In this document: piece by piece, positions 5,439-62,615 of the stretch
Position numbering within the stretch: the stretch's first letter is position 1
Layout: the number at the start of each line of letters is the position of its first letter
NCBI GenBank assembly: GCA_044230415.1
Contig: JBGARE010000001.1
Span: 433,195 to 497,194 of the forward strand
DNA length: 64,000 bases
Direction: 5' to 3'
DNA from: Kofleriaceae bacterium
Lineage (GTDB): Bacteria > Myxococcota_A > Polyangia > Haliangiales > Haliangiaceae
The notes under the pieces: model-generated
Told to the model about the DNA's origin: nothing
What the model saw: only the letters and a program-made list of their open reading frames with translations
The model's database searches: none
Made by a program: the position numbers and the translations under genes

Positions 5439-6413
5439 CTACTTCGTCAGGACGAGGTAGGCGAGGACCGCGATCGCACCGACGAGGATCGCGATCAGCA
5501 CGAACACGAGCGCGTTGGACTTCGACGGTGCGGCGATGCGCGGATCCATCGGCGCCTGCGCGGCGAAGCCGAAGCTGTTGCTCGACGGCGACGAGCTCGG
5601 TCCCGACGAGAAGCCGGGCGGACGCGATCCACTACCAGGACCCGTCGGCGGCTTCGAGCCGAGCTGCGGACGGCTCGGGGGCTTGAGGTTCGAGCCGCTG
5701 CCGGTGCTGCCCGGATTGCTGCCGGGACCGCTGCCATGCTTCGCGAGCACCGATGCGGGCTGCGTGCTCGTGCGCTGGATCGAAGGCAGCGATGGAACGC
5801 TCGGCTTGGATCCGCCGGAGAGGTTCGGCTGGCTCGCGCGCGAGCGGACCTTCTTGCCGCCGTTGTTGTCGCCGTTGGATCCGCGACCGAGGTCGCGCAT
5901 CGCACCGTTGATCTTGTCGGGCTCGGCGAGCTTCTTCTGGTTCGAGAGGAACGCGAAGTAGCTATCCGGCATGTCGTCGAAGTCCATGACGAGATCGCAC
6001 TCGTCACAGCGACACGTGGGCGGCTCGTGTGGCGGCGGACCCATGTCCGTTGCCTCGACGAGCAGGACCTTCTCCTCGTCGCACTCCGGGCAGAAGTACG
6101 GAACGTAGAAGCTCTTGACGACGCCGTTGCCGGTGAAGTTGTTGACGAGGTTGATCTGCGCGACGATCGCCGGCGAGCACTCGACGAGAACCGAGCGCGT
6201 GCCGTTCGTCTCGAGCTTCGAGAGCCAGTTCACCCAGTCGCGAACGCCGCACGAGTTGATGCGCTCGATCTCGCCGAGATCGATCACGGCTGTTCCCGTC
6301 GGAATCTTGTCGACGAGATCCGCGAGCTCGTTGTCCTCGTCGATAACACCGCCGAGCTTCACGTAGCTCACGTCACCGCGGTGTTGCACCGATGCTTGGA
6401 ACTTCTGGCTCAT
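5439..6413 (-). CDS. STAS-domain protein with a Cys-rich zinc-ribbon-like segment, a Pro/Ser-rich linker and a C-terminal transmembrane anchor
   Basis: The N-terminal 110 aa ([20 protein letters not shown]...[21 protein letters not shown]...[10 protein letters not shown]) resemble an anti-sigma-antagonist/STAS fold. This is followed by CPECD...CRCDECD, a long P/S/G-rich linker and the C-terminal hydrophobic helix [21 protein letters not shown]. Confidence 0.6.
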
Positions 6414-52980: not shown

Positions 52981-54057
52981 ATGAAGCGCTGGGCAACGAT
53001 CGCAGTGGTCGGGATCTTCCTCGGATGCGGCGGAAAGTCTCCACCGCCGATGGCGCCTGCACCTGCTCCCGCTCCCGCCCCGGTCGCCACCTGCGCCCCG
53101 ACCGTGGCGCCGCCGGCCGAGCTCGACGAAGCGAAGCTGTCCGAGCGCAGCAAAGCGCTCTACGACGCGATGGATGCGAACGACGTCACGCGGTTCTTGA
53201 AGCTCGCGGGGCCGGCGCTCGTGTTGTTCGAGGACGGACGCAGCTTCTCGTCGTCGATGCTCGTGCAGCAGATGTCGAGCCGCGTCGAGCGCAACCTGCC
53301 GCGGCGGACTCGCACGTGGAAAGAAGAGCGCGCGTACCTCGGACCGAACGTCGCCGTGTTCGTCGGGCTCGCCGTCGAGGTGCTGCCCACCGAAGGCGGG
53401 AAAACGACGGAGTTCGAGGGCTGGAACACCGCGGTGTGGGTCAACGATGGCACCGAGTGGAAGGCGTCACATCTGCAGTGGCAGCCCGGTGGCATCGAGG
53501 CCGAGCGCTCGATGTGGAACGAAGCCTTTCGCAAGCAGATCAGCTTCAAGACCACGCCGAATCAGCTGCTCGTCGACACGATCAAAGGCAAGAAGACCGG
53601 CGCCGCGCTGGACGTGATGATGGGGCAGGGCCGCAACGCCGTGTTCCTCGCGACGAAGGGCTGGAAGGTCACCGGCGTCGACATCTCCGACGAGGGAATC
53701 CGTCAGGCGAAGGAGGCCGCGCAGAAGAAGGGCGTGCAGCTCACCGCCGTCCAGGCCGACATCGAGAAGTTCGACTTCGGGACGAACAAGTGGGACCTCG
53801 TCACGATGATCTACGCCGGCAGCGACGCGTCGACGGTCGAGAAGATCAAAGCGAGCCTCAAGAAGAACGGCCTGTTCGTCGTCGAGTACTTCCACGCCGA
53901 AGGCACCGCGGGCTCCGGCATCGGTGGCTTCGCGACGGGCGAGCTCGCCGCGAAGCTCGAGGGCTGGAAGGTGCTCAAAGATGAAGTCGTCGAGGACGTC
54001 TCCGATTGGGGCCTGCGCAAGATGAAGCTCGTGCGCTTCGTCGCGCAGAAGCCCTGA
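52981..54057 (+). CDS. Lipoprotein with an NTF2/SnoaL-like N-terminal domain and a C-terminal class I SAM-dependent methyltransferase (TehB/TPMT-like)
   Basis: The refined start MKRWATIAVVGIFLGCGG has the lipobox FLGC. The linker APAPAPAP follows. The methyltransferase domain shows motif I ALDVMMGQGRNAVFLATKGWKVTGVDIS and motif II LVTMIYAG. Confidence 0.75.
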   Translation: MKRWATIAVVGIFLGCGGKSPPPMAPAPAPAPAPVATCAPTVAPPAELDEAKLSERSKALYDAMDANDVTRFLKLAGPALVLFEDGRSFSSSMLVQQMSSRVERNLPRRTRTWKEERAYLGPNVAVFVGLAVEVLPTEGGKTTEFEGWNTAVWVNDGTEWKASHLQWQPGGIEAERSMWNEAFRKQISFKTTPNQLLVDTIKGKKTGAALDVMMGQGRNAVFLATKGWKVTGVDISDEGIRQAKEAAQKKGVQLTAVQADIEKFDFGTNKWDLVTMIYAGSDASTVEKIKASLKKNGLFVVEYFHAEGTAGSGIGGFATGELAAKLEGWKVLKDEVVEDVSDWGLRKMKLVRFVAQKP

Positions 54058-54781: not shown

Positions 54782-57700
54782 CTAGACCTCCAGGAGCTCG
54801 AGCAGATCGTGGTCGTAGCGGGTGTGATCGGCGGCGGTCTTGCCTTCGTTGTCGCGCAGGCCACGGTTCGCCCCGGCGGCGAGCAAGAGCTCGATCGCCT
54901 TCTTCTCGCGGAACCGCGCGGCGTGGATCAGCGCGGTGGATCCGTCCTCGTCCTGAAGATCGAGGTTCGCGCCTTCTTCGATCAGCAGCTCGACGCAGGC
55001 CGGGTTGTCGACGGCGCACATCAGCGCGGTGCGTCCGGCCGAGTCCTTCGCGTCGACGTGAGCGCCGCGCTTCAGCGCGAGCACGATGTGCGCCTTGTTG
55101 CCCGTCCACGCGGCGTTGATGGCGCACTCCGCGACGGACGCGCCGCGATCGAGGAACAGCTCGAACACCTTCTTCGACTTCGCGGCGGCTGCGTTCTGCA
55201 CCGGTGTCGATCCGGTGGAGTCCTTCTCTTCGAGCTCGCACACGTCGAGGAACTTCTCGACGAGCGCCATCTTGCCGGAGCTCGCACTCTCGGCGAGGCA
55301 GCCGGCGACGGCCGCCTTTCGCGCGAGGAAGAAGTCGACGATGTCCTCGTGACCGCGGCGTGCCGCGAAGTGGATCGCGGTCGCCTTCTTCTCCGTGGTC
55401 GCGTGGATGTCCGCGCCGTTGTCGACGAGCCACGTCACGAGCGACAGTGCATCGTCGCTGTCTTCGACGAGAGCGGCGACCATGAGCGGCGTCTTGCCGT
55501 CCTCGCTCGCTGCGTTGACGCTCGCACCGAGCTCGACGAGCAGCTTCGCGACGTCCTTGTCCGGCGTCTCGAGTGCGCGGCACAACGCGGTCTTGCCGTC
55601 GTCGCTCCGGGCATCGAGGTTGTCGCCGTTCGCGAGGCACAGCGCGGCGATCCGCTTTCGCTCCGCAGCCTTCTTCGGCAGCGCGTCGCGTTCGATCATC
55701 GCGGCGATGCACCCGTCGAGCTTCGCGCCCGCGGCGACGAGCTTGTCGAGGAGCGCGAACTGCTGCTCTCGGGCTGCGATCTGCGCGACGGTGCGATAGC
55801 TACGCGCGTTCGGATCGGCGCCCGCGGCGAGCAAGCGATCGACAATGGTCCAGTAGCTGTAGCCTGCGGCGCGCAGGATCGGCGGCTCGGCATCGGCGGA
55901 CTCCGCGAGGCTCGGATTCGCGCCTTGTGCGAGGGCGAGGTCGAGCGTGGCGAACTGATCGTCGCTGCCGGTCGCCGCGCTGGCGAGCGCCGCTTGCGGA
56001 TCGAGCAGCGTGATCGTGCGGCCCTCGCCGACCCAGGTCTCGATTCGCTCGCGTATCGAGTAGCTCGTGCCGTCGACGGGCGCGCCTTTCGCGAGCAGCT
56101 CCTCGACGAGGCCGGGAAGATCCTCGGCGTAGTCCACCGCGCGTGCCACGAGCGATGCGCCGGGCTTTCCGGTCACCTTCGTTCCGCGATCGAGCAGCAA
56201 GCGCACGAGCGCGGCGTTGCGTGACGACAACGCCGATTCGACGATCAGCGACTCGCCGTGGAGCTCGTTGGGGTCGAAGCCGGCATCGAGGAGCGCGGTC
56301 ACGATCTCGATGTCCTCGCGCCACACCGCGCGCTGGAGCGTGCCGTTCGCGCGCGGCTTCGCGCCGGCGGCGATCAGCGCCTGGACCGCGGCGAGCGTGC
56401 CCGATTCCGCGGCGCGGTACAGCGGCGTGTAGCCGTACTCGTTCAGCACGCGATCGACCTCCGCACCCGCGGCGACGAGCGCCGCGATCGACGCCGGCTT
56501 GCCCGCAGAGGCGGCGAACTCGAGCGGCTCTTTGTAACTGGGCAACGGCTTCGTGAACCCGTGCACCGGCGCGAGACGAGCGATCGTCTCGGTGTCCTCG
56601 TCCTCGATCGCGCGCTGCAGTGCGACCGCCGGATCGACATCCGCGGAGCGCTTCCGCATCAGCGCGACGACGTCGCCGCGGCGTGCTTCCTCGGCGAGCG
56701 CGAACGCGGTGAATCCCGTGCGATCGGCGAGGAACGGCGCTGCACCGCGATCGAGCAACAGCTCGACGATCGCGAGGTGGCCCATGTCCGCGGCTTCCAT
56801 CAGCGCGGTCCAGCCATCGTTGTCGGCGGCGTCGATGTCAGCACCCTTGTCGAGCAACGCGTGGACGATCGCGAGGCGGCCGTACTCCGCTGCTTCGTGC
56901 AGCGCGCGCCGTCTGTCGTCGTTCGCGACGTTTACATTGACCGGGCGCTCCAGCATCGCGAGGACCTCGGCATCCGTGCCGCGTCCCGCGAGCGCGATCA
57001 GCTCGACGAGCTGCAGCGTCGCGCCGCGTGCCTCGAGGAGCGCGGCGACGTCGCGGTGCTTGTTGTTGGTCGCGATGCGATGCGGGACGTTGCCATCCTT
57101 GTCGGCGAGGTTCGGATCCGCGCCGTGATCGAGCAGCACGCGCACGTTGTCGAGGTGCCCTCGATCCGATGCGCGATGCAGCGGCATCCAGCCGTACTCA
57201 CCGGGTGCGTTCGCATCGGGTGCGATCTCGAGCGCTCGCGTCATGCGCTCCGCGTTGTTGCTGTTCTGCGCGACGCCCATGACGATGCCGCTCGTCGTCG
57301 GATCGCCGAAGCCACGGTCCGCGAGTAGCTCGACGACCTCGATGTGACCGCCCGCGCCCGCACGGCGGATGGCGGTGTAGTCGTCGACCTCGTAGCCTTC
57401 GCGGGGGCCGGGCTCGGTCGCGCCGCGGTCGAGGAGCAGCTCTACCACCTCGCGGTGACCGCCGCGCGCCGCTTTGCGCAGCGCCGTGTCCTGATCGTAG
57501 CTGTCGTCGACCCAGTTCACGTCGGCGCCGCGGTCGAGGAGCAGCTCGACGATCTCGCGGTTGCCTTTCTCGGCAGCGGTGATCAGCGGCGGCTTGCGCG
57601 ACTTCGCGTTCATCGCGCCGCGATCGAGGAACAAGCGCACGAGCTCCACGCTCTCGCGCTCGATCGCGCGCTCGAGCGGCGAGTCGCTGTACGAGCGCGA

Positions 57701-58792
57701 ATCGACGGACAGCCGCGCGCCCGCCGCGAGCAAGCGTTTGACTACCTCGACGTGGCCGCGATTCGCCGCGGCGCCGAGCGCAGTCGTGTCGATGATGTTG
57801 CCGAGGTGAATGTCCGCACCGCGCTCGATCAACAGATCGACGACATCCGTCCAGCCATGCTCGGCGGCTTCGATCAGCGCCGTGTCGCGATTGCCTTCGT
57901 GACGCGCGTCGATATTGGCGCCGCGATCGAGCAGGAACGTCGCGATCTCGAGGAGGGCCGCGGGCCTGTCGTAGTTGTTCGCGACAAACGCCATCGCCGC
58001 GTCGAGATCTGCGCCGGCATCCGCGAGGAGCCGCACGATGTCGAGGTGGCCTTCGCGCGCTGCATGCGCGATCGCGGTGCGCCCTTCTCTGTCCGCGAGA
58101 TCCAGCGGGCTCGCCGACGCGGTCTTCGACTTCTTCGGCTTCGCTTTGGACGTCGACTTCGCGGCGGGCTTTGCCTTCGCGGGAACATCGAGCTGCTCGA
58201 CCAACCACGCGACGAGAGCGCGATGATTCCCCGCCGCGGCCAGCATCAGCGCGGACGTGCCTTGCTCGTCGACCACCGCCAGATCGTCGCCGGCCTTCAG
58301 CGCGCGCTTCGCCATCTCGAGATCGCCGGCCGCGACGGCACCGAGCAGCCAGCCGCGGACCGCTGCCTTCTTCTTCACGAGCCAGTCGACGATGTCGCCG
58401 CGCTTCGCCCGCGCCGCGTTGCCGAGGCCGCTCCAGCCGCTCTCGCGATCGTCGATCGATGCACCGTTCTCGACGAGCAGCTCGAGGAGCTCGATCGAGA
58501 CCGTCGCGCACGCGCTCGCGAACACTCCCTCGCGAGCGGCATCGCCCGGACGCTGCCCGAGGATCCACCGCGCGACCTTCTCGGCCTTGTCACCCAGCGC
58601 GCTGCCGAGGAGGTACTCGTCGACCGCTTCGCCGGCCGCGACGATCTCCTGAACGATCGCGAGGTCATCCCGCGCGATCGCTCGATACATCGCGCTCGAG
58701 CGGTCCGACTCGGTGACCGTGGCGATCAGCTTCCGGACCGTGGCGACATCGCCGCCATCGGCCGCGGCTACCCATTCCTCCTGGCTCATCAT
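54782..58792 (-). CDS. Giant ankyrin-repeat protein (about 1335 aa, at least 30 ankyrin repeats)
   Basis: The ankyrin consensus recurs continuously, with G-TPLH-AA--GH--iV-LLL--GAdvn units such as GRTAIAHAAREGHLDIVRLLADAGADLDAA and GWTALMEAADMGHLAIVELLLDRGAAP. The start was chosen at MMSQEEWVAAADGG at 58792. The track ORF runs to 59122 through non-repeat, Arg-rich sequence. Confidence 0.85.
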   Translation of the reverse strand: MMSQEEWVAAADGGDVATVRKLIATVTESDRSSAMYRAIARDDLAIVQEIVAAGEAVDEYLLGSALGDKAEKVARWILGQRPGDAAREGVFASACATVSIELLELLVENGASIDDRESGWSGLGNAARAKRGDIVDWLVKKKAAVRGWLLGAVAAGDLEMAKRALKAGDDLAVVDEQGTSALMLAAAGNHRALVAWLVEQLDVPAKAKPAAKSTSKAKPKKSKTASASPLDLADREGRTAIAHAAREGHLDIVRLLADAGADLDAAMAFVANNYDRPAALLEIATFLLDRGANIDARHEGNRDTALIEAAEHGWTDVVDLLIERGADIHLGNIIDTTALGAAANRGHVEVVKRLLAAGARLSVDSRSYSDSPLERAIERESVELVRLFLDRGAMNAKSRKPPLITAAEKGNREIVELLLDRGADVNWVDDSYDQDTALRKAARGGHREVVELLLDRGATEPGPREGYEVDDYTAIRRAGAGGHIEVVELLADRGFGDPTTSGIVMGVAQNSNNAERMTRALEIAPDANAPGEYGWMPLHRASDRGHLDNVRVLLDHGADPNLADKDGNVPHRIATNNKHRDVAALLEARGATLQLVELIALAGRGTDAEVLAMLERPVNVNVANDDRRRALHEAAEYGRLAIVHALLDKGADIDAADNDGWTALMEAADMGHLAIVELLLDRGAAPFLADRTGFTAFALAEEARRGDVVALMRKRSADVDPAVALQRAIEDEDTETIARLAPVHGFTKPLPSYKEPLEFAASAGKPASIAALVAAGAEVDRVLNEYGYTPLYRAAESGTLAAVQALIAAGAKPRANGTLQRAVWREDIEIVTALLDAGFDPNELHGESLIVESALSSRNAALVRLLLDRGTKVTGKPGASLVARAVDYAEDLPGLVEELLAKGAPVDGTSYSIRERIETWVGEGRTITLLDPQAALASAATGSDDQFATLDLALAQGANPSLAESADAEPPILRAAGYSYWTIVDRLLAAGADPNARSYRTVAQIAAREQQFALLDKLVAAGAKLDGCIAAMIERDALPKKAAERKRIAALCLANGDNLDARSDDGKTALCRALETPDKDVAKLLVELGASVNAASEDGKTPLMVAALVEDSDDALSLVTWLVDNGADIHATTEKKATAIHFAARRGHEDIVDFFLARKAAVAGCLAESASSGKMALVEKFLDVCELEEKDSTGSTPVQNAAAAKSKKVFELFLDRGASVAECAINAAWTGNKAHIVLALKRGAHVDAKDSAGRTALMCAVDNPACVELLIEEGANLDLQDEDGSTALIHAARFREKKAIELLLAAGANRGLRDNEGKTAADHTRYDHDLLELLEV

Positions 58793-58828: not shown

Positions 58829-59143
58829 ATGAGCGAGGCGGCAAAGAAGTACAGGTCGGCCGTGGTGGAGCGAGTTCAGAGCGGTGATGGCCATGCACGC
58901 GCGGCGGATCGACGCGCCGCGTTCGCGAACGTCGACGTCCCCGCGGGAGCACGCGCGCTGATCGACAAGGTGGCGAAGACCGCGTGGAAGGTGACCGACG
59001 AGGACGTCGCCGCCGCGAAGGCCGCGGGAGTCACCGAGGACCAGGTGTTCGAGCTCGCGGTGTGCGCCGCGATCGGACAGGCTTCGCGCCAGTTCGATTC
59101 GGCCATGGCCGCACTCGACCAAGCTGCAAAGGAGACCCCGTGA
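58829..59143 (+). CDS. Small CMD (carboxymuconolactone decarboxylase/AhpD-like) helical-domain protein, 104 aa
   Basis: MSEAAKKYRS...ALIDKVAKTAWKVTDEDVAAAKAAGVTEDQVFELAVCAAIGQASRQFDSAMAAL resembles the C-terminal helical half of CMD-family proteins. Its stop overlaps the next gene's GTG start as GTGA. The upstream part of track ORF 57344..59143 is antisense to the ankyrin gene and was discarded. Confidence 0.5.
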   Translation: MSEAAKKYRSAVVERVQSGDGHARAADRRAAFANVDVPAGARALIDKVAKTAWKVTDEDVAAAKAAGVTEDQVFELAVCAAIGQASRQFDSAMAALDQAAKETP

Positions 59144-59727
59144 GGCTCTCGGTCCTCGATGGCAAGCACCACACGCTCGGCAAGCGCGCGCTGTTCGTGG
59201 TGATCCGCGCGATGTCGCGCATGCCGGTGCCCGACGTCGTCAAGACGCTGACGTATCGCCCCGACTTCTTCGGCGCGCCGATGAACGAGGTGTTCCAGGA
59301 AGTGATGCGGGGTCCGTCGGAGTGGTCGATCGGCGAGCGCGAGCTGATGGCCGCCTACGTCTCGAAGACGAACGAGTGCGAGTTTTGAACTCGCGCTCAC
59401 GGCGCGGTCGCGTCGAAGGTGCTCGGTAACACGGCGGTAGATGCAGCGCTCGCGGATCTCGCGGACGCGAAGATCAGCGACAAGCTACGCGCGACCCTCG
59501 CGATGCTGCGAAAGGTCACGCGCGATCACGCGTCGATCACCGCGGACGACATGCGCTCTCTGCTGGCGAGCGGTGTCACGCGCGCGCAGATCGAGGACGC
59601 GCTGCTCGTCGGCTGGTGCTTCAACGTGATCACGCGGCTCGCAGACACGTTCGAGTTCCACGTCGGCCCGCAGGCGGCGTTCGACTCGTCGGCGAACATG
59701 CTGCTCAAGCGCGGCTACAAGATCTAA
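59140..59727 (+). CDS. CMD/AhpD-family 'peroxidase-related enzyme' (TIGR01926-like) with an in-frame TGA at 59386..59388, precisely at the second Cys of the catalytic CxxC-xxx-H motif; candidate selenoprotein (CxxU), otherwise a pseudogene
   Basis: Track ORFs 58984..59388 and 59419..59727 are in the same frame and separated only by the TGA. Read through, the protein is ...ERELMAAYVSKTNECEF[TGA]TRAHGAVASKVLGNTAVDAALADLADAKISDKLRATLAML...VTRAQIEDALLVGWCFNVITRLADTFEFHVGPQAAF. This aligns with the family consensus ...LTASVEN-C-x-Y-C-xxx-H..., placing Cys at +0, TGA at +3 and His at +7. Both halves have CMD-like helices. A 5-bp GC hairpin, CGCGC-UCACG-GCGCG, begins 3 nt after the TGA. Confidence 0.5.
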
Positions 59728-59913: not shown

Positions 59914-60681
59914 TCACGGCGCCACGTCGATGCCCTGCGCCCGGGCTTCGGCCTTGATGCGATCGCTCATCGCGTTCGTCTTGGCCTGCAGCTGAGGCGT
60001 CGGGTTGTTCTTCGCGACGGCCGCGCACGCGACGAGACCCTCGCTGAACTTGCCCTCCTGATAGAGGGACGTGCACAGGTTGAAGAAGTACTTGGCCTCC
60101 GGCACGCGCGCCACGGCCTCGCGGAACTTCGCGCTCGCCTCGGCATACTTCTTCGCGTACATGAGCTGCGCGCCTTCGTCGCTGAGCTTCGTCGCGATCG
60201 CTGCTTGACCACCACTCGCGGGTACGGGCGTCGAGTCCGGCGGCGTGTCGACAACGCCCTCGGGGCCCGGATCGCCACCGAACGTCATCGTCACGCCCTG
60301 CGCCTTCGCCTCCGCCTCGATGCGCGAGATCAACGCGTGCGCCTTCTCGGCGAGCGCGGGCGGGGGATCGCCCTTGTCGACCGCTTCACACGCGGTCTTC
60401 GCGTCGTAGAACTTTCCCTCCTGGAACAGCGACGTGCACAGATTGAAGAAGTACCGGGGCTCCGGCACGCGCGCGACCGCGTTGCGAAACTGCTCGCTCG
60501 CGAGCTCGTACTTGCCGGCGTACATCGCCTTCACGCCTTCCTCGTTGAAGCCCGCGGCCAACATCCCCTGCTTCCCGCTGGCCTCGGTCACGACCGGTGA
60601 CCGTTCGACATCGGGCTTCGCCGGCTCCGCCTTCCCGCCACATCCCGCGATCAACGCAACCACCACGACGAGCTTCATCAC
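59914..60681 (-). CDS. Lipoprotein built from two tandem roughly 100-aa TPR-like repeat modules
   Basis: MMKLVVVVALIAGCGG has the lipobox IAGC. The two modules share G.(K/Q)(M/L)MYA(G/K)KY(E/A)(L/E)AS.(Q/K)FR(N/E)AVARVPE.(R/K)YFFNLCTSL(F/Y)QEGKF...AC.AV.K..P.P.L..K..A...RI.AEA.AQG. The duplication is also visible at the DNA level. Confidence 0.7.
   Translation of the reverse strand: MMKLVVVVALIAGCGGKAEPAKPDVERSPVVTEASGKQGMLAAGFNEEGVKAMYAGKYELASEQFRNAVARVPEPRYFFNLCTSLFQEGKFYDAKTACEAVDKGDPPPALAEKAHALISRIEAEAKAQGVTMTFGGDPGPEGVVDTPPDSTPVPASGGQAAIATKLSDEGAQLMYAKKYAEASAKFREAVARVPEAKYFFNLCTSLYQEGKFSEGLVACAAVAKNNPTPQLQAKTNAMSDRIKAEARAQGIDVAP
60000..60600 (-). repeat. Intragenic tandem duplication of about 357 bp (two copies, roughly 80% identical)
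   Basis: The segment gttgaagaagtacttggcctccggcacgcgcgccacggcctcgcggaacttcgcgctcgc at about 60079 matches gttgaagaagtaccggggctccggcacgcgcgcgaccgcgttgcgaaactgctcgctcgc at about 60436. Both copies sit in the same frame of the lipoprotein gene. Confidence 0.6.
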
Positions 60682-60709: not shown

Positions 60710-61639
60710 GTGCCTGCACGACCGCCCATCAGGAGCCTACCGTTCGATCCGGCGAGCAAGCCGACGCTCGGCTTCGAGATGTTCAAGCTGTCGTCGCTCT
60801 ACGAGCGCGCGCATCGCAAGGTCCTCTCGCACGCGCTCGAGGTCCCGCAACGCCCCGAGTTCCACACGATCTACGTGGGCCTCCAAGGTCGCGGCGAGCT
60901 GCTCGTCGACTTCACCCCGACCCCGATCGGCGCCGACCACATCACGGTGGTCGCACGCAGCCGCGTCCAGCAATTCCACCGCGCGCCCAAGTCCGGCCTG
61001 GACGCCTGGATGCTCCTGTTCACCCCCGAGTTCATCGAGCTCCCGTCCGCGACCGACCCGCTCGCGATGCCCTCGATCCTGTGGCCGCTCGATCACGTGC
61101 CCTCGCTCACGCTCAACGCGGACGACCAGGCCGCCGTCCTCGCGATCACCGATCAACTCCACCTCGAGCGCAGCCGTCCACTCGACCGCTTCCAGCCCCT
61201 CGTGCTGTCGTCGCTCCTCCGGAGCATCCTGCTGCGCCTCGAACGCGCGGTCGCGTGGCACTCGCCGATGACGGTGCTCCGGCGGTTTTTTACCATCCTC
61301 GAGCGCGACTTCGCCCGGACGCGCGAGGTCGAGCACTACGCGCGCGAGTCCGGCATCTCGCCACGGCGTCTGAGCGAGCTTCTCCGCGAGGAGCTCGGCC
61401 GATCCACGAAGCAGGTGATCGACGAGCGCGTCATTCTCGAGCACAAGCGGCTACTTGCCCACACCGGGGTTAGTGTGAAGGAGCTCGCGGGTCTCACCGG
61501 CTTCGACGAGCCGACCAACCTGGTGAAGTTCTTTCGGCTGCATACCGGACAAACGCCCCTCGAGTTTCGGTCTGGCCACCTCACCGGGGTTACGGAAAAG
61601 CGGCCGAAGCGCCGCACCGGGGTTAGGGGAAAGCGCTAG
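60710..61639 (+). CDS. AraC-family transcriptional regulator (cupin-type N-terminal sensor plus C-terminal double HTH)
   Basis: The C-terminal region ILERDFARTREVEHYARESGISPRRLSELLREELGRSTKQVIDERVILEHKRLLAHTGVSVKELAGLTGFDEPTNLVKFFRLHTGQTPLEFR is the AraC HTH signature. A short basic tail, GHLTGVTEKRPKRRTGVRGKR, is encoded by the direct-repeat DNA. Confidence 0.85.
   Translation: MPARPPIRSLPFDPASKPTLGFEMFKLSSLYERAHRKVLSHALEVPQRPEFHTIYVGLQGRGELLVDFTPTPIGADHITVVARSRVQQFHRAPKSGLDAWMLLFTPEFIELPSATDPLAMPSILWPLDHVPSLTLNADDQAAVLAITDQLHLERSRPLDRFQPLVLSSLLRSILLRLERAVAWHSPMTVLRRFFTILERDFARTREVEHYARESGISPRRLSELLREELGRSTKQVIDERVILEHKRLLAHTGVSVKELAGLTGFDEPTNLVKFFRLHTGQTPLEFRSGHLTGVTEKRPKRRTGVRGKR
61581..61632 (+). 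promoter_or_regulatory. Two 19-nt imperfect direct repeats (CACCGGGGTTA-c/g-GG-a/g-AAAG) 33 bp apart, about 125–155 bp upstream of the MBL hydrolase start; candidate AraC-type operator half-sites
   Basis: The first copy is caccggggttacggaaaag at 61581..61599 and the second is caccggggttaggggaaag at 61614..61632. A third CACCGGGGTTA core lies at 61461..61471. AraC-family activators typically bind direct repeats spaced by whole helical turns upstream of their target promoters. Confidence 0.4.
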
Positions 61640-61736
61640 CGCCCACTGGGTGCCGAACGTCGCTCCGCCGATTTTTACCATTCGGCCGCGGGTCCTGACC
61701 TCGCGCCCCGGACACGCGCTGGCTAGCTTCGTCGCC

Positions 61737-62615
61737 ATGACCAAGCTCGCATCGATCGCGCTCCTCTCGTGTCTCGTGTCCGGCGTTGCCGTGGCCGAGA
61801 CGAAGCTGACCACGACCGTCTACACGGCGACCCCGAACGGGTTCTTGGTGACGTCCACCCTGATCGCGGGAGAGAAGGAAGCCATCCTGATCGACGCGCA
61901 GTTCACGCTGGCGGATGCGCACCGCGTGGTCGGGCAGATCCTGGACAGCAAGAAGACGCTGACCTCGGTCTACGTGACCCACGGTCATCCGGACCACTAC
62001 TTCGGTCTCGAGGTGATCAAGCAGGCGTTCCCGAAGGTGAAGATCGTGGCGCTCGACAAGCCGCTGGCCGAGATCAAGAAGACGGCCGCCGCGAAGGTGA
62101 AGCAGTGGGGCCCCGTGTACGGCGCGCAGATCACGGCGAAGCCGCTGACGCCCGCCGCGCAGAAGGCGGCGACGCTGACGCTCGAGGGACAGACGATCGA
62201 GCTGCGTGGGCCCACGCAAGGCGACAGTGGGGACAGCACGTACGTGTGGATCCCGTCGACGAAGACCGTGATCGCGGGCGACATCGTGTTCGCGGGCGTT
62301 CACGTGTGGACCGCAGAGACGAACGCGGAGCAGCGCAAGGCGTGGATCAAGACGCTCGACGAGATCGCCGCGCTCGCACCGACGACGGTGGTGCCGGGCC
62401 ATCAGGATCCGAAAGCGAAGAACGATCTGTCGGCCGTGAAGGCGACCAAGGACTACTTGATCGCGTTCGATGCGGCGGTGGCGTCGTCGAAGTCGGCGGA
62501 CGAGGCCGAGCAGAAGATGAAGGCGAAGTACAAGGACCTCCAGCTCGACGTGATCCTCCACTTCGGTGCCGGCGCGCAGTTCGCGCCGCCATCGCCGCCG
62601 CCCGCGAAGAAGTGA
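61737..62615 (+). CDS. Secreted MBL-fold metallo-hydrolase (beta-lactamase-like)
   Basis: The refined start MTKLASIALLSCLVSGVAVA is a signal peptide. VYVTHGHPDHYFG is the HxHxDH zinc-binding motif, and conserved His/Asp residues follow (VVPGHQDP). Confidence 0.85.
   Translation: MTKLASIALLSCLVSGVAVAETKLTTTVYTATPNGFLVTSTLIAGEKEAILIDAQFTLADAHRVVGQILDSKKTLTSVYVTHGHPDHYFGLEVIKQAFPKVKIVALDKPLAEIKKTAAAKVKQWGPVYGAQITAKPLTPAAQKAATLTLEGQTIELRGPTQGDSGDSTYVWIPSTKTVIAGDIVFAGVHVWTAETNAEQRKAWIKTLDEIAALAPTTVVPGHQDPKAKNDLSAVKATKDYLIAFDAAVASSKSADEAEQKMKAKYKDLQLDVILHFGAGAQFAPPSPPPAKK

Follow-up and report, generated by a model that had tools for sequence, protein, structure and literature searches.

A probable AhpD-like selenoprotein of Kofleriaceae with a conserved hairpin downstream of its in-frame UGA

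AhpD-like proteins with selenocysteine (Sec) at the second position of the redox motif, giving CxxU, have been known since 2005, when 27 sequences of this type, assigned to COG2128, were described in the Sargasso Sea selenoproteome (PMC1088965). In the Global Ocean Sampling data the groups AhpD-like 1 (299 sequences) and AhpD-like 2 (70 sequences) ranked among the most abundant selenoprotein families (PMC2398784), a 2026 review lists AhpD-like selenoproteins with TIGR01926 as their defining model (PMC13188914), and the family also appears in BSepDB (PMC13326102). Here we analyzed a 64,000-nt stretch of a Kofleriaceae bacterium genome (GCA_044230415.1, contig JBGARE010000001.1, positions 433,195 to 497,194), hereafter the window, in which the gene at 59140..59727 on the forward strand very probably encodes an AhpD-like selenoprotein whose in-frame UGA at 59386..59388 is decoded as Sec, as judged from comparative sequence analysis. 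Like the AhpD-like selenoprotein family of the COG2128/TIGR01926 type described by Zhang, Gladyshev and co-workers, the predicted protein combines a PF02627/TIGR00778 fold and Sec as the second residue of CxxU with widespread Cys homologues, and its putative selenocysteine insertion sequence (SECIS) is a hairpin inside the open reading frame (ORF) with a G opening the apical loop (PMC1088965, PMC2398784, PMC13188914). Unlike that family, the Kofleriaceae subfamily falls under the TIGR01926 cutoff and is accompanied by a half-domain partner gene to which it is probably translationally coupled. The original prediction, made from the letters of the window without database searches, had proposed a candidate selenoprotein and stated that AhpD-like selenoproteins had been reported before; the papers cited above bear out the second statement, and a conserved TGA, selection downstream of it and a TGA-specific hairpin support the first.

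The reading frame opens with GTG at 59140, 5 nt downstream of the Shine-Dalgarno-like sequence AGGAG (59130..59134, forward strand), and continues to TAA at 59725..59727 with the TGA at 59386..59388 as its sole internal stop. Orthologues begin at the same position. When the TGA is read through, the product comprises 195 residues including Sec83, which agrees with the single same-frame CMD/AhpD frame of about 195 aa, broken only by a TGA, that had been proposed. The local translation around the TGA is N-E-C-E-F-stop-T-R-A-H, and the active-site motif of the read-through protein is E68-x11-C80-E-F-U83-T-R-A-H87. On the forward strand these residues correspond to the codons 59341..59343 (Glu68, the putative proton-relay glutamate, with 11 residues between it and Cys80), 59377..59379 (TGC, Cys80, first position of CxxU), 59386..59388 (UGA, Sec83, second position of the CxxC/CxxU redox motif) and 59398..59400 (CAC, His87, the putative relay histidine at Sec+4), the last base of the His87 codon being the first base of the putative SECIS stem.

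For profile searches the window protein was used with Cys substituted for Sec. It scored as a member of Pfam CMD (PF02627, 27.3 bits at a cutoff of 23) and of the AhpD core family of NCBIfam (TIGR00778, 30.1 bits at a cutoff of 27.8). Sequence matches in the PDB were 2oyo, 6k40 (AhpD of D. radiodurans), 3c1l, 2pfx and 2prr, with E values from 6e-13 to 5e-9 and aligned CxxC-x3-H segments. A structure model was made for P0001, a Cys homologue with 62% identity that stood in for the window protein, and reached a predicted local distance difference test score (pLDDT) of 78, with 87-97 in the core. In a Foldseek comparison of this model with the PDB, 2pfx, 6k40, 2prr and 3c1l ranked at the top (E of about 2e-5, template modelling (TM) score of 0.6-0.7), the thiol-dependent debrominase Bmp8 appeared lower down the list, and M. 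tuberculosis AhpD (1GU9) was a distant structural match (TM 0.4-0.5). The window protein is thus predicted, by way of its modelled homologue, to adopt an all-helical AhpD-like fold. It would share this all-helical CMD fold and the spacing Glu-x11-Cys-x2-Cys-x3-His with M. tuberculosis AhpD, PA0269, 6K40, 2OYO, 2PFX, 2PRR and 3C1L, all of which have Cys at both redox positions, whereas the window protein is predicted to carry Sec at the second. A C-x-x-U-T context is also found in the AhpD-related (seleno)protein family NF041238 (AhpD_rel_CFYUT; CFYUT there, CEFUT here), but the window protein matched only the C-terminal half of this 357-position model, with 43.5 bits against a cutoff of 175, and is not a member.

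The proton relay of AhpD is formed by Glu118, Cys130, Cys133 and His137 in M. tuberculosis and by Glu36, Cys48, Cys51 and His55 in PA0269 (PMC3141380). E68, C80, U83 and H87 reproduce this spacing exactly, and their positions are invariant in the family alignment. In AhpD the second Cys (Cys133), as reportedly found by Nunn et al. in 2002 and Koshkin et al. in 2003, loses its proton through the relay and is the nucleophile. Given this role of Cys133, Sec at the equivalent position would be the expected replacement of a catalytic Cys by Sec, with Cys80 as the resolving partner.

Scanning one genome per species retrieved 21 related loci, of which nearly all carry the label Kofleriaceae/Haliangiales (Myxococcota). 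Nineteen of them, with 56-85% amino-acid identity, have a stop at exactly the same codon with both halves intact, and this stop is TGA every time; the two outgroup loci, from Dormibacteraceae and from an Acidobacteriota metagenome-assembled genome (MAG), carry Cys at the position of Sec83. Scanning of metagenomes yielded a further 24 TGA forms together with 21 Cys forms. In total, TGA occupies this codon in 44 of 44 Sec-type loci (the window and 43 others, 56-93% amino-acid identity), and 23 more distant loci have TGC or TGT. Furthermore, among the best 120 full-length database homologues (identity up to 64%), 116 have Cys at this position, as NECEFCTKAH and variants following the general pattern N-x-C-x-[FWY]-C-x3-H; the motif search gave no match in the remaining 4. 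As had been proposed, the TGA falls exactly on the second Cys of the CxxC-xxx-H motif, a coincidence that in these alignments is far beyond chance.

Two of the genome loci deserve separate mention. L020, a 3.4-kb contig labelled Acidobacteriota, has a Sec-type gene and clusters with the Kofleriaceae locus L016; it is likely a mis-binned contig rather than a Sec form in Acidobacteriota. L021, the Cys-type locus of an Acidobacteriota MAG, has no stop between the partner frame and the AhpD-like frame, which are fused (5746..6288), and its AhpD-like frame breaks after residue 96 or so; this probably reflects an assembly indel or frameshift rather than biology.

RNAalifold applied to the alignment of Sec-type sequences found de novo a single hairpin, CGGCGC-GGUC-GCGUCG, at 59400..59415 on the forward strand, which we consider the putative core of a bacterial SECIS. 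Its stem of 6 bp is formed by 59400..59405 and 59410..59415 and encloses the loop GGUC at 59406..59409; the hairpin starts 11 nt past the UGA, and the distance from UGA to loop is 17 nt. All Sec-type sequences share the near-invariant nucleotide block CAC GSC GCG GTC GCG KCG. Third positions never vary in codons 87-92 but do so where Ala, Val and Gly are invariant elsewhere in the gene. Among the 38 distinct Sec-type sequences, standard pairs occupy all 228 of 228 cells of the stem, and pairing collapses when the 3’ strand is shifted by 1-3 columns. At pair 3, 25 of these sequences have G·U and 13 have C-G, a double change that alters Gly to Ala and Ser to Ala. A single change that preserves wobble pairing is seen once at pair 1 and once at pair 2. 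The full hairpin is present in 44 of 44 TGA forms and in 0 of 23 Cys forms. The Cys forms also served as a negative control: in the same columns 59% of their cells pair, which is the level of shuffled sequences, and their mean structure energy is -2.3 kcal/mol compared to -8.9 kcal/mol in the Sec forms.

Published constraints on bacterial SECIS elements (bSECIS) comprise a loop of 3-9 nt with a G among its two opening nucleotides followed by G or U, a stem of 4-16 bp, a UGA-to-loop distance of 16-37 nt and an energy of -7.5 kcal/mol or lower (PMC13188914). The hairpin lies within all of them, with its 4-nt GGUC loop, 6-bp stem and 17-nt distance and a stability of -8.1 kcal/mol in the window (-10.8 kcal/mol in the C-G variant). 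Like the SECIS of E. coli fdhF, it is an in-ORF hairpin and has the identical GGUC loop, located 18 nt after the UGA in fdhF, as measured on the K-12 sequence, and 17 nt here. Unlike in fdhF, conservation is limited to the 6-bp upper stem and includes neither a lower stem nor a bulged U; a lower helix does form in the window’s own sequence but is not conserved across orthologues. The case for a SECIS, which is a comparative one, is carried mainly by the TGA-form-specific invariance of synonymous sites, the perfect association of TGA and hairpin, and the fit to the consensus. A conserved SECIS-like structure downstream of the TGA, which the original prediction had recommended to look for, therefore exists, at 59400..59415. 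The small hairpin that had been pointed out there, CGCGC-ucacg-GCGCG starting 3 nt after the TGA (59392..59406, forward strand), is present in the sequence and overlaps and competes with the stem of the putative SECIS; it was rejected as a SECIS, as the 19 genome orthologues retain only 0-5 of its 5 pairs.

The Phe codon directly before the UGA (59383..59385) is TTT in 43 of 44 Sec forms and TTC in one, in a gene with about 90% G+C at third codon positions and a TTC to TTT ratio of 175:11 elsewhere. A Sec-specific context signal, considered when TTT was found in the first 20 of 20 sequences, was rejected because the Cys forms mostly have TTT as well (17 of 21). The constraint on this codon is not Sec-specific.

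Several observations weigh against decoding of the UGA as Sec. With TIGR01926, the peroxidase-related enzyme model, the window protein reached 75.6 bits, below the trusted cutoff of 81.8, in an alignment that is nearly full length (residues 20-175 against positions 18-175 of 178); we would place it in a sister or borderline subfamily. The SECIS models of Rfam gave no match at gathering thresholds in the whole window, or at E values up to 10 in 59340..59480. Rfam’s few bacterial SECIS models are lineage-specific, and we therefore give this negative result little weight. Folded as a single sequence, 59386..59450 was no more stable than shuffled sequences (z = +0.7); in this sequence of about 70% G+C, the comparative analysis alone was informative. 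Covariation in the hairpin rests on one base pair, for which trees suggest one or a few events, and the invariance of three of its six pairs counts as neutral evidence. ARAGORN detected no tRNA-Sec in the 64-kb window and the roughly 231 kb of the 21 related loci, and tblastn with E. coli SelA, SelB and SelD found no selA, selB or selD in the same 294,910 bases, a sample that is uninformative for whole genomes.

Maintenance of the TGA together with the SECIS across dozens of lineages, on the other hand, provides strong indirect evidence for a Sec machinery. A literature search for the Sec trait in Haliangium, Haliangiales or Kofleriaceae returned nothing relevant. A scan of the window and the related loci for other in-frame TGAs with a two-sided coding signal revealed nothing convincing, but it was a weak scan in which the gene itself failed the composition thresholds.

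The UGA could in principle be recoded independently of Sec, by a near-cognate or suppressor tRNA (for Trp, Cys or Gly), with the hairpin as a generic stimulator of readthrough. Downstream structures can act in this way, and the bases searched yielded no Sec machinery genes. We nevertheless consider this explanation very unlikely, since the recoded position is precisely the redox Cys, a hallmark of Sec/Cys pairs, and since the GGUC loop and 17-nt spacing match the SelB-binding SECIS of fdhF and the hairpin conforms to the bSECIS model. Moreover, the partner gene ends at an ordinary TGA stop (59141..59143) that overlaps the start of the putative selenoprotein gene, implying that the genetic code is standard, and the Sec trait is documented in Myxococcota, in the myxobacterium Anaeromyxobacter with 11 selenoproteins (PMC1794560).

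Substitution patterns indicate that the sequence past the TGA is translated and under purifying selection. In close pairs the ratio of nonsynonymous to synonymous substitution rates (dN/dS) downstream of the TGA is 0.24 (window and L001), 0.16 (L001 and L017) and 0.085 (L009 and L012), similar to the values of the upstream half, and the Sec-type loci have no extra stops or frameshifts. At residue 86 (alignment column 85), three codons past the TGA, Ala or Ser is kept while all four third-position bases are used, and His87 is invariant across the alignment. These data bear on the idea of a split gene, in which the TGA is a true stop and an 82-aa N-terminal peptide assembles non-covalently with a separately initiated C-terminal one, to which we assign a slim chance. 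GTG 59419 is a possible restart, from which gene callers predict a product of 102 aa, but it is absent in most orthologues, and just 4 of 44 loci have ATG or GTG as the codon immediately following the TGA. In a split gene residues 84-92 would go untranslated, yet they hold the invariant catalytic His87 and the protein-level constraint at residue 86, both upstream of any possible restart codon, which argues against reinitiation. One of the two redox residues and His87 would be lost from both peptides, and the hairpin fits the consensus for SelB binding, not that of a ribosome-binding site.

A pseudogene, in which a TGC-to-TGA nonsense mutation left the downstream half to decay, would require just a single transversion, and gene callers do split the gene into ‘hypothetical protein’ fragments of 82 and 102 aa. 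The comparative data effectively refute it and leave it extremely unlikely: the TGA is kept in all 44 loci without further disruption, purifying selection downstream is similar to that upstream, and a TGA-form-specific hairpin is maintained at synonymous sites. The original prediction, which had named this alternative, had taken the clean downstream half as an argument against an old pseudogene and had suggested inspecting close relatives for TGC or TGT. Its argument is upheld by the selection on this half; the relatives carry TGA with an intact, selected downstream half, and Cys codons occur only in the more distant loci. A sequencing or assembly error, for a single read-derived window a bare possibility and nothing more, retains a negligible probability and is refuted by the identity of the 588-nt gene including the TGA (0 mismatches) in four independent assemblies of the same strain from different samples, by the TGA at the same codon in the 43 other loci, and by the occurrence of the 82-aa fragment in 107 indexed blocks of the collection, or 87 contigs by cluster look-up.

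With the UGA read as Sec83, the gene would give rise to a 195-residue AhpD-like thiol/selenol oxidoreductase. On the insertion of Sec, the binding of SelB, the parts that Sec83 and Cys80 play in catalysis, the substrate and the interaction with the partner, we infer the following. When the ribosome is at the UGA, the hairpin at 59400..59415, which also codes for H-G-A-V-A-S, would be positioned just outside the mRNA channel and would recruit SelB·GTP·Sec-tRNASec, thereby outcompeting RF2. By analogy to M. tuberculosis AhpD, Sec83, located at the position of Cys133, would be the attacking nucleophile, activated through the equivalent of the Glu118-His137-water relay, with Cys80 as the resolving residue and formation of a selenenylsulfide. 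The enzyme may be a peroxidase, or it may reduce a peroxiredoxin or some other oxidised thiol substrate.

In an outgroup-rooted neighbour-joining tree the Cys clade was monophyletic in 100 of 100 replicates, whereas monophyly of all Sec forms was recovered in 1 of 100. The nesting of the Cys clade within paraphyletic Sec forms hints at a Sec-to-Cys replacement, with a rooting that depends on one distant outgroup. In the early-branching Cys loci L047 and L054-L056 the inner GC-[G/A/T]GTC-GC core of the hairpin is kept, while derived Cys forms have GC-AACC-GC. Together with the tree, this retained core could represent a SECIS decaying after Sec-to-Cys replacement; it could equally reflect conservation of the encoded A-V-A.

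The partner gene (58829..59143, forward strand) encodes 104 aa and overlaps the GTG start of the putative selenoprotein gene with its TGA stop (GTGA). It is located directly upstream in 20 of 21 genome loci, nearly all of which have a 4-nt overlap or a gap of 0-3 nt between stop and start, and in 40 of the 42 metagenome loci that extend far enough upstream. As it accompanies Sec and Cys types alike, in about 60 loci overall, the two-gene cassette predates the difference between them. Around the operon, neither promoter-like nor terminator-like sites were detected. The partner protein has no Pfam match and no CxxC motif. Ten of 18 orthologues match positions 107-162, approximately, of TIGR01926, corresponding to the C-terminal helical half (best E 2.6e-5), the PDB match to AhpD 6k40 has an E value of 0.0055, and hhalign against the AhpD-like alignment gave an E value of 5e-4 with a probability of only 31%. 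In these comparisons the partner shows weak similarity to the C-terminal half of the AhpD/TIGR01926 fold. It may serve as a subunit with a structural or regulatory role, and the gene arrangement suggests that partner and selenoprotein are probably translationally coupled and act together. We also considered that an obligate cassette of a half-domain AhpD paralogue and a full AhpD-like protein forms a hetero-oligomeric selenoenzyme in which Sec is ancestral and the Cys clade derived. In that case the large Cys clade of soil Acidobacteriota and Dormibacterota would have arisen from a Sec form through Sec-to-Cys replacement and SECIS decay. This extended proposal is tentative, and we regard it as rather unlikely in its entirety.

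The neighbours of the cassette encode an AraC regulator, a metallo-beta-lactamase (MBL)-fold hydrolase, a tetratricopeptide repeat (TPR) lipoprotein and an ankyrin protein. As a difference from M. tuberculosis AhpD and the AhpD-like proteins named above, no ahpC or peroxiredoxin gene is adjacent, and no peroxiredoxin gene is found among the genes called within roughly 10 kb to each side. The AraC-family regulator (HTH_18, 60710..61639) and the MBL-fold hydrolase (Lactamase_B, 61650..62615), both on the forward strand, are syntenic with the cassette in L002, L003, L013 and L018, an arrangement that may be a conserved module for stress or detoxification. The AraC gene comes directly after the cassette in L003 and L018. 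In the window and its close relative L002 the gene of a predicted lipoprotein lies between cassette and AraC/MBL genes (59914..60681, reverse strand, 255 aa); in it a Cys comes after the signal peptide, two overlapping self-similar tblastn matches show that a TPR-like unit is duplicated internally, and there are faint TPR matches. Divergent from the cassette, 54782..58789 on the reverse strand encodes an ankyrin-repeat protein of 1335 aa as called, in an ORF of up to 1446 aa, a size unusual for a bacterium; the identical gene in locus L074 has many matches to Pfam Ank_2, Ank_4 and Ank_5. About 5 kb upstream of the cassette, a methyltransferase gene at approximately 52981..54057 on the forward strand (placed from L074, 3842..4918) has TehB, Methyltransf_11/25 and DUF4440 matches. 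TehB-type enzymes methylate tellurite and selenite. A link of this methyltransferase to selenium metabolism is pure speculation, its matches being generic for class I methyltransferases.

Altogether, the locus is an apparently new and currently mis-annotated member of the known CxxU AhpD-like family, and it changes nothing in the known chemistry of selenoproteins or AhpD. Public collections hold the gene, in about 87 contigs, only as fragments of 82 and 102 aa, the few named ones as ‘hypothetical protein’; the comparative data call for joining these fragments into a single selenoprotein. With 16 nt, a GGUC loop and a start 11 nt past the UGA, the very compact and invariant SECIS could be used as a motif in searches of this lineage for other selenoproteins. 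Read as an AhpD-like selenoprotein gene, the locus would document the use of Sec in Kofleriaceae/Haliangiales, aerobic soil Myxococcota, and would imply a working Sec-insertion system in these genomes.

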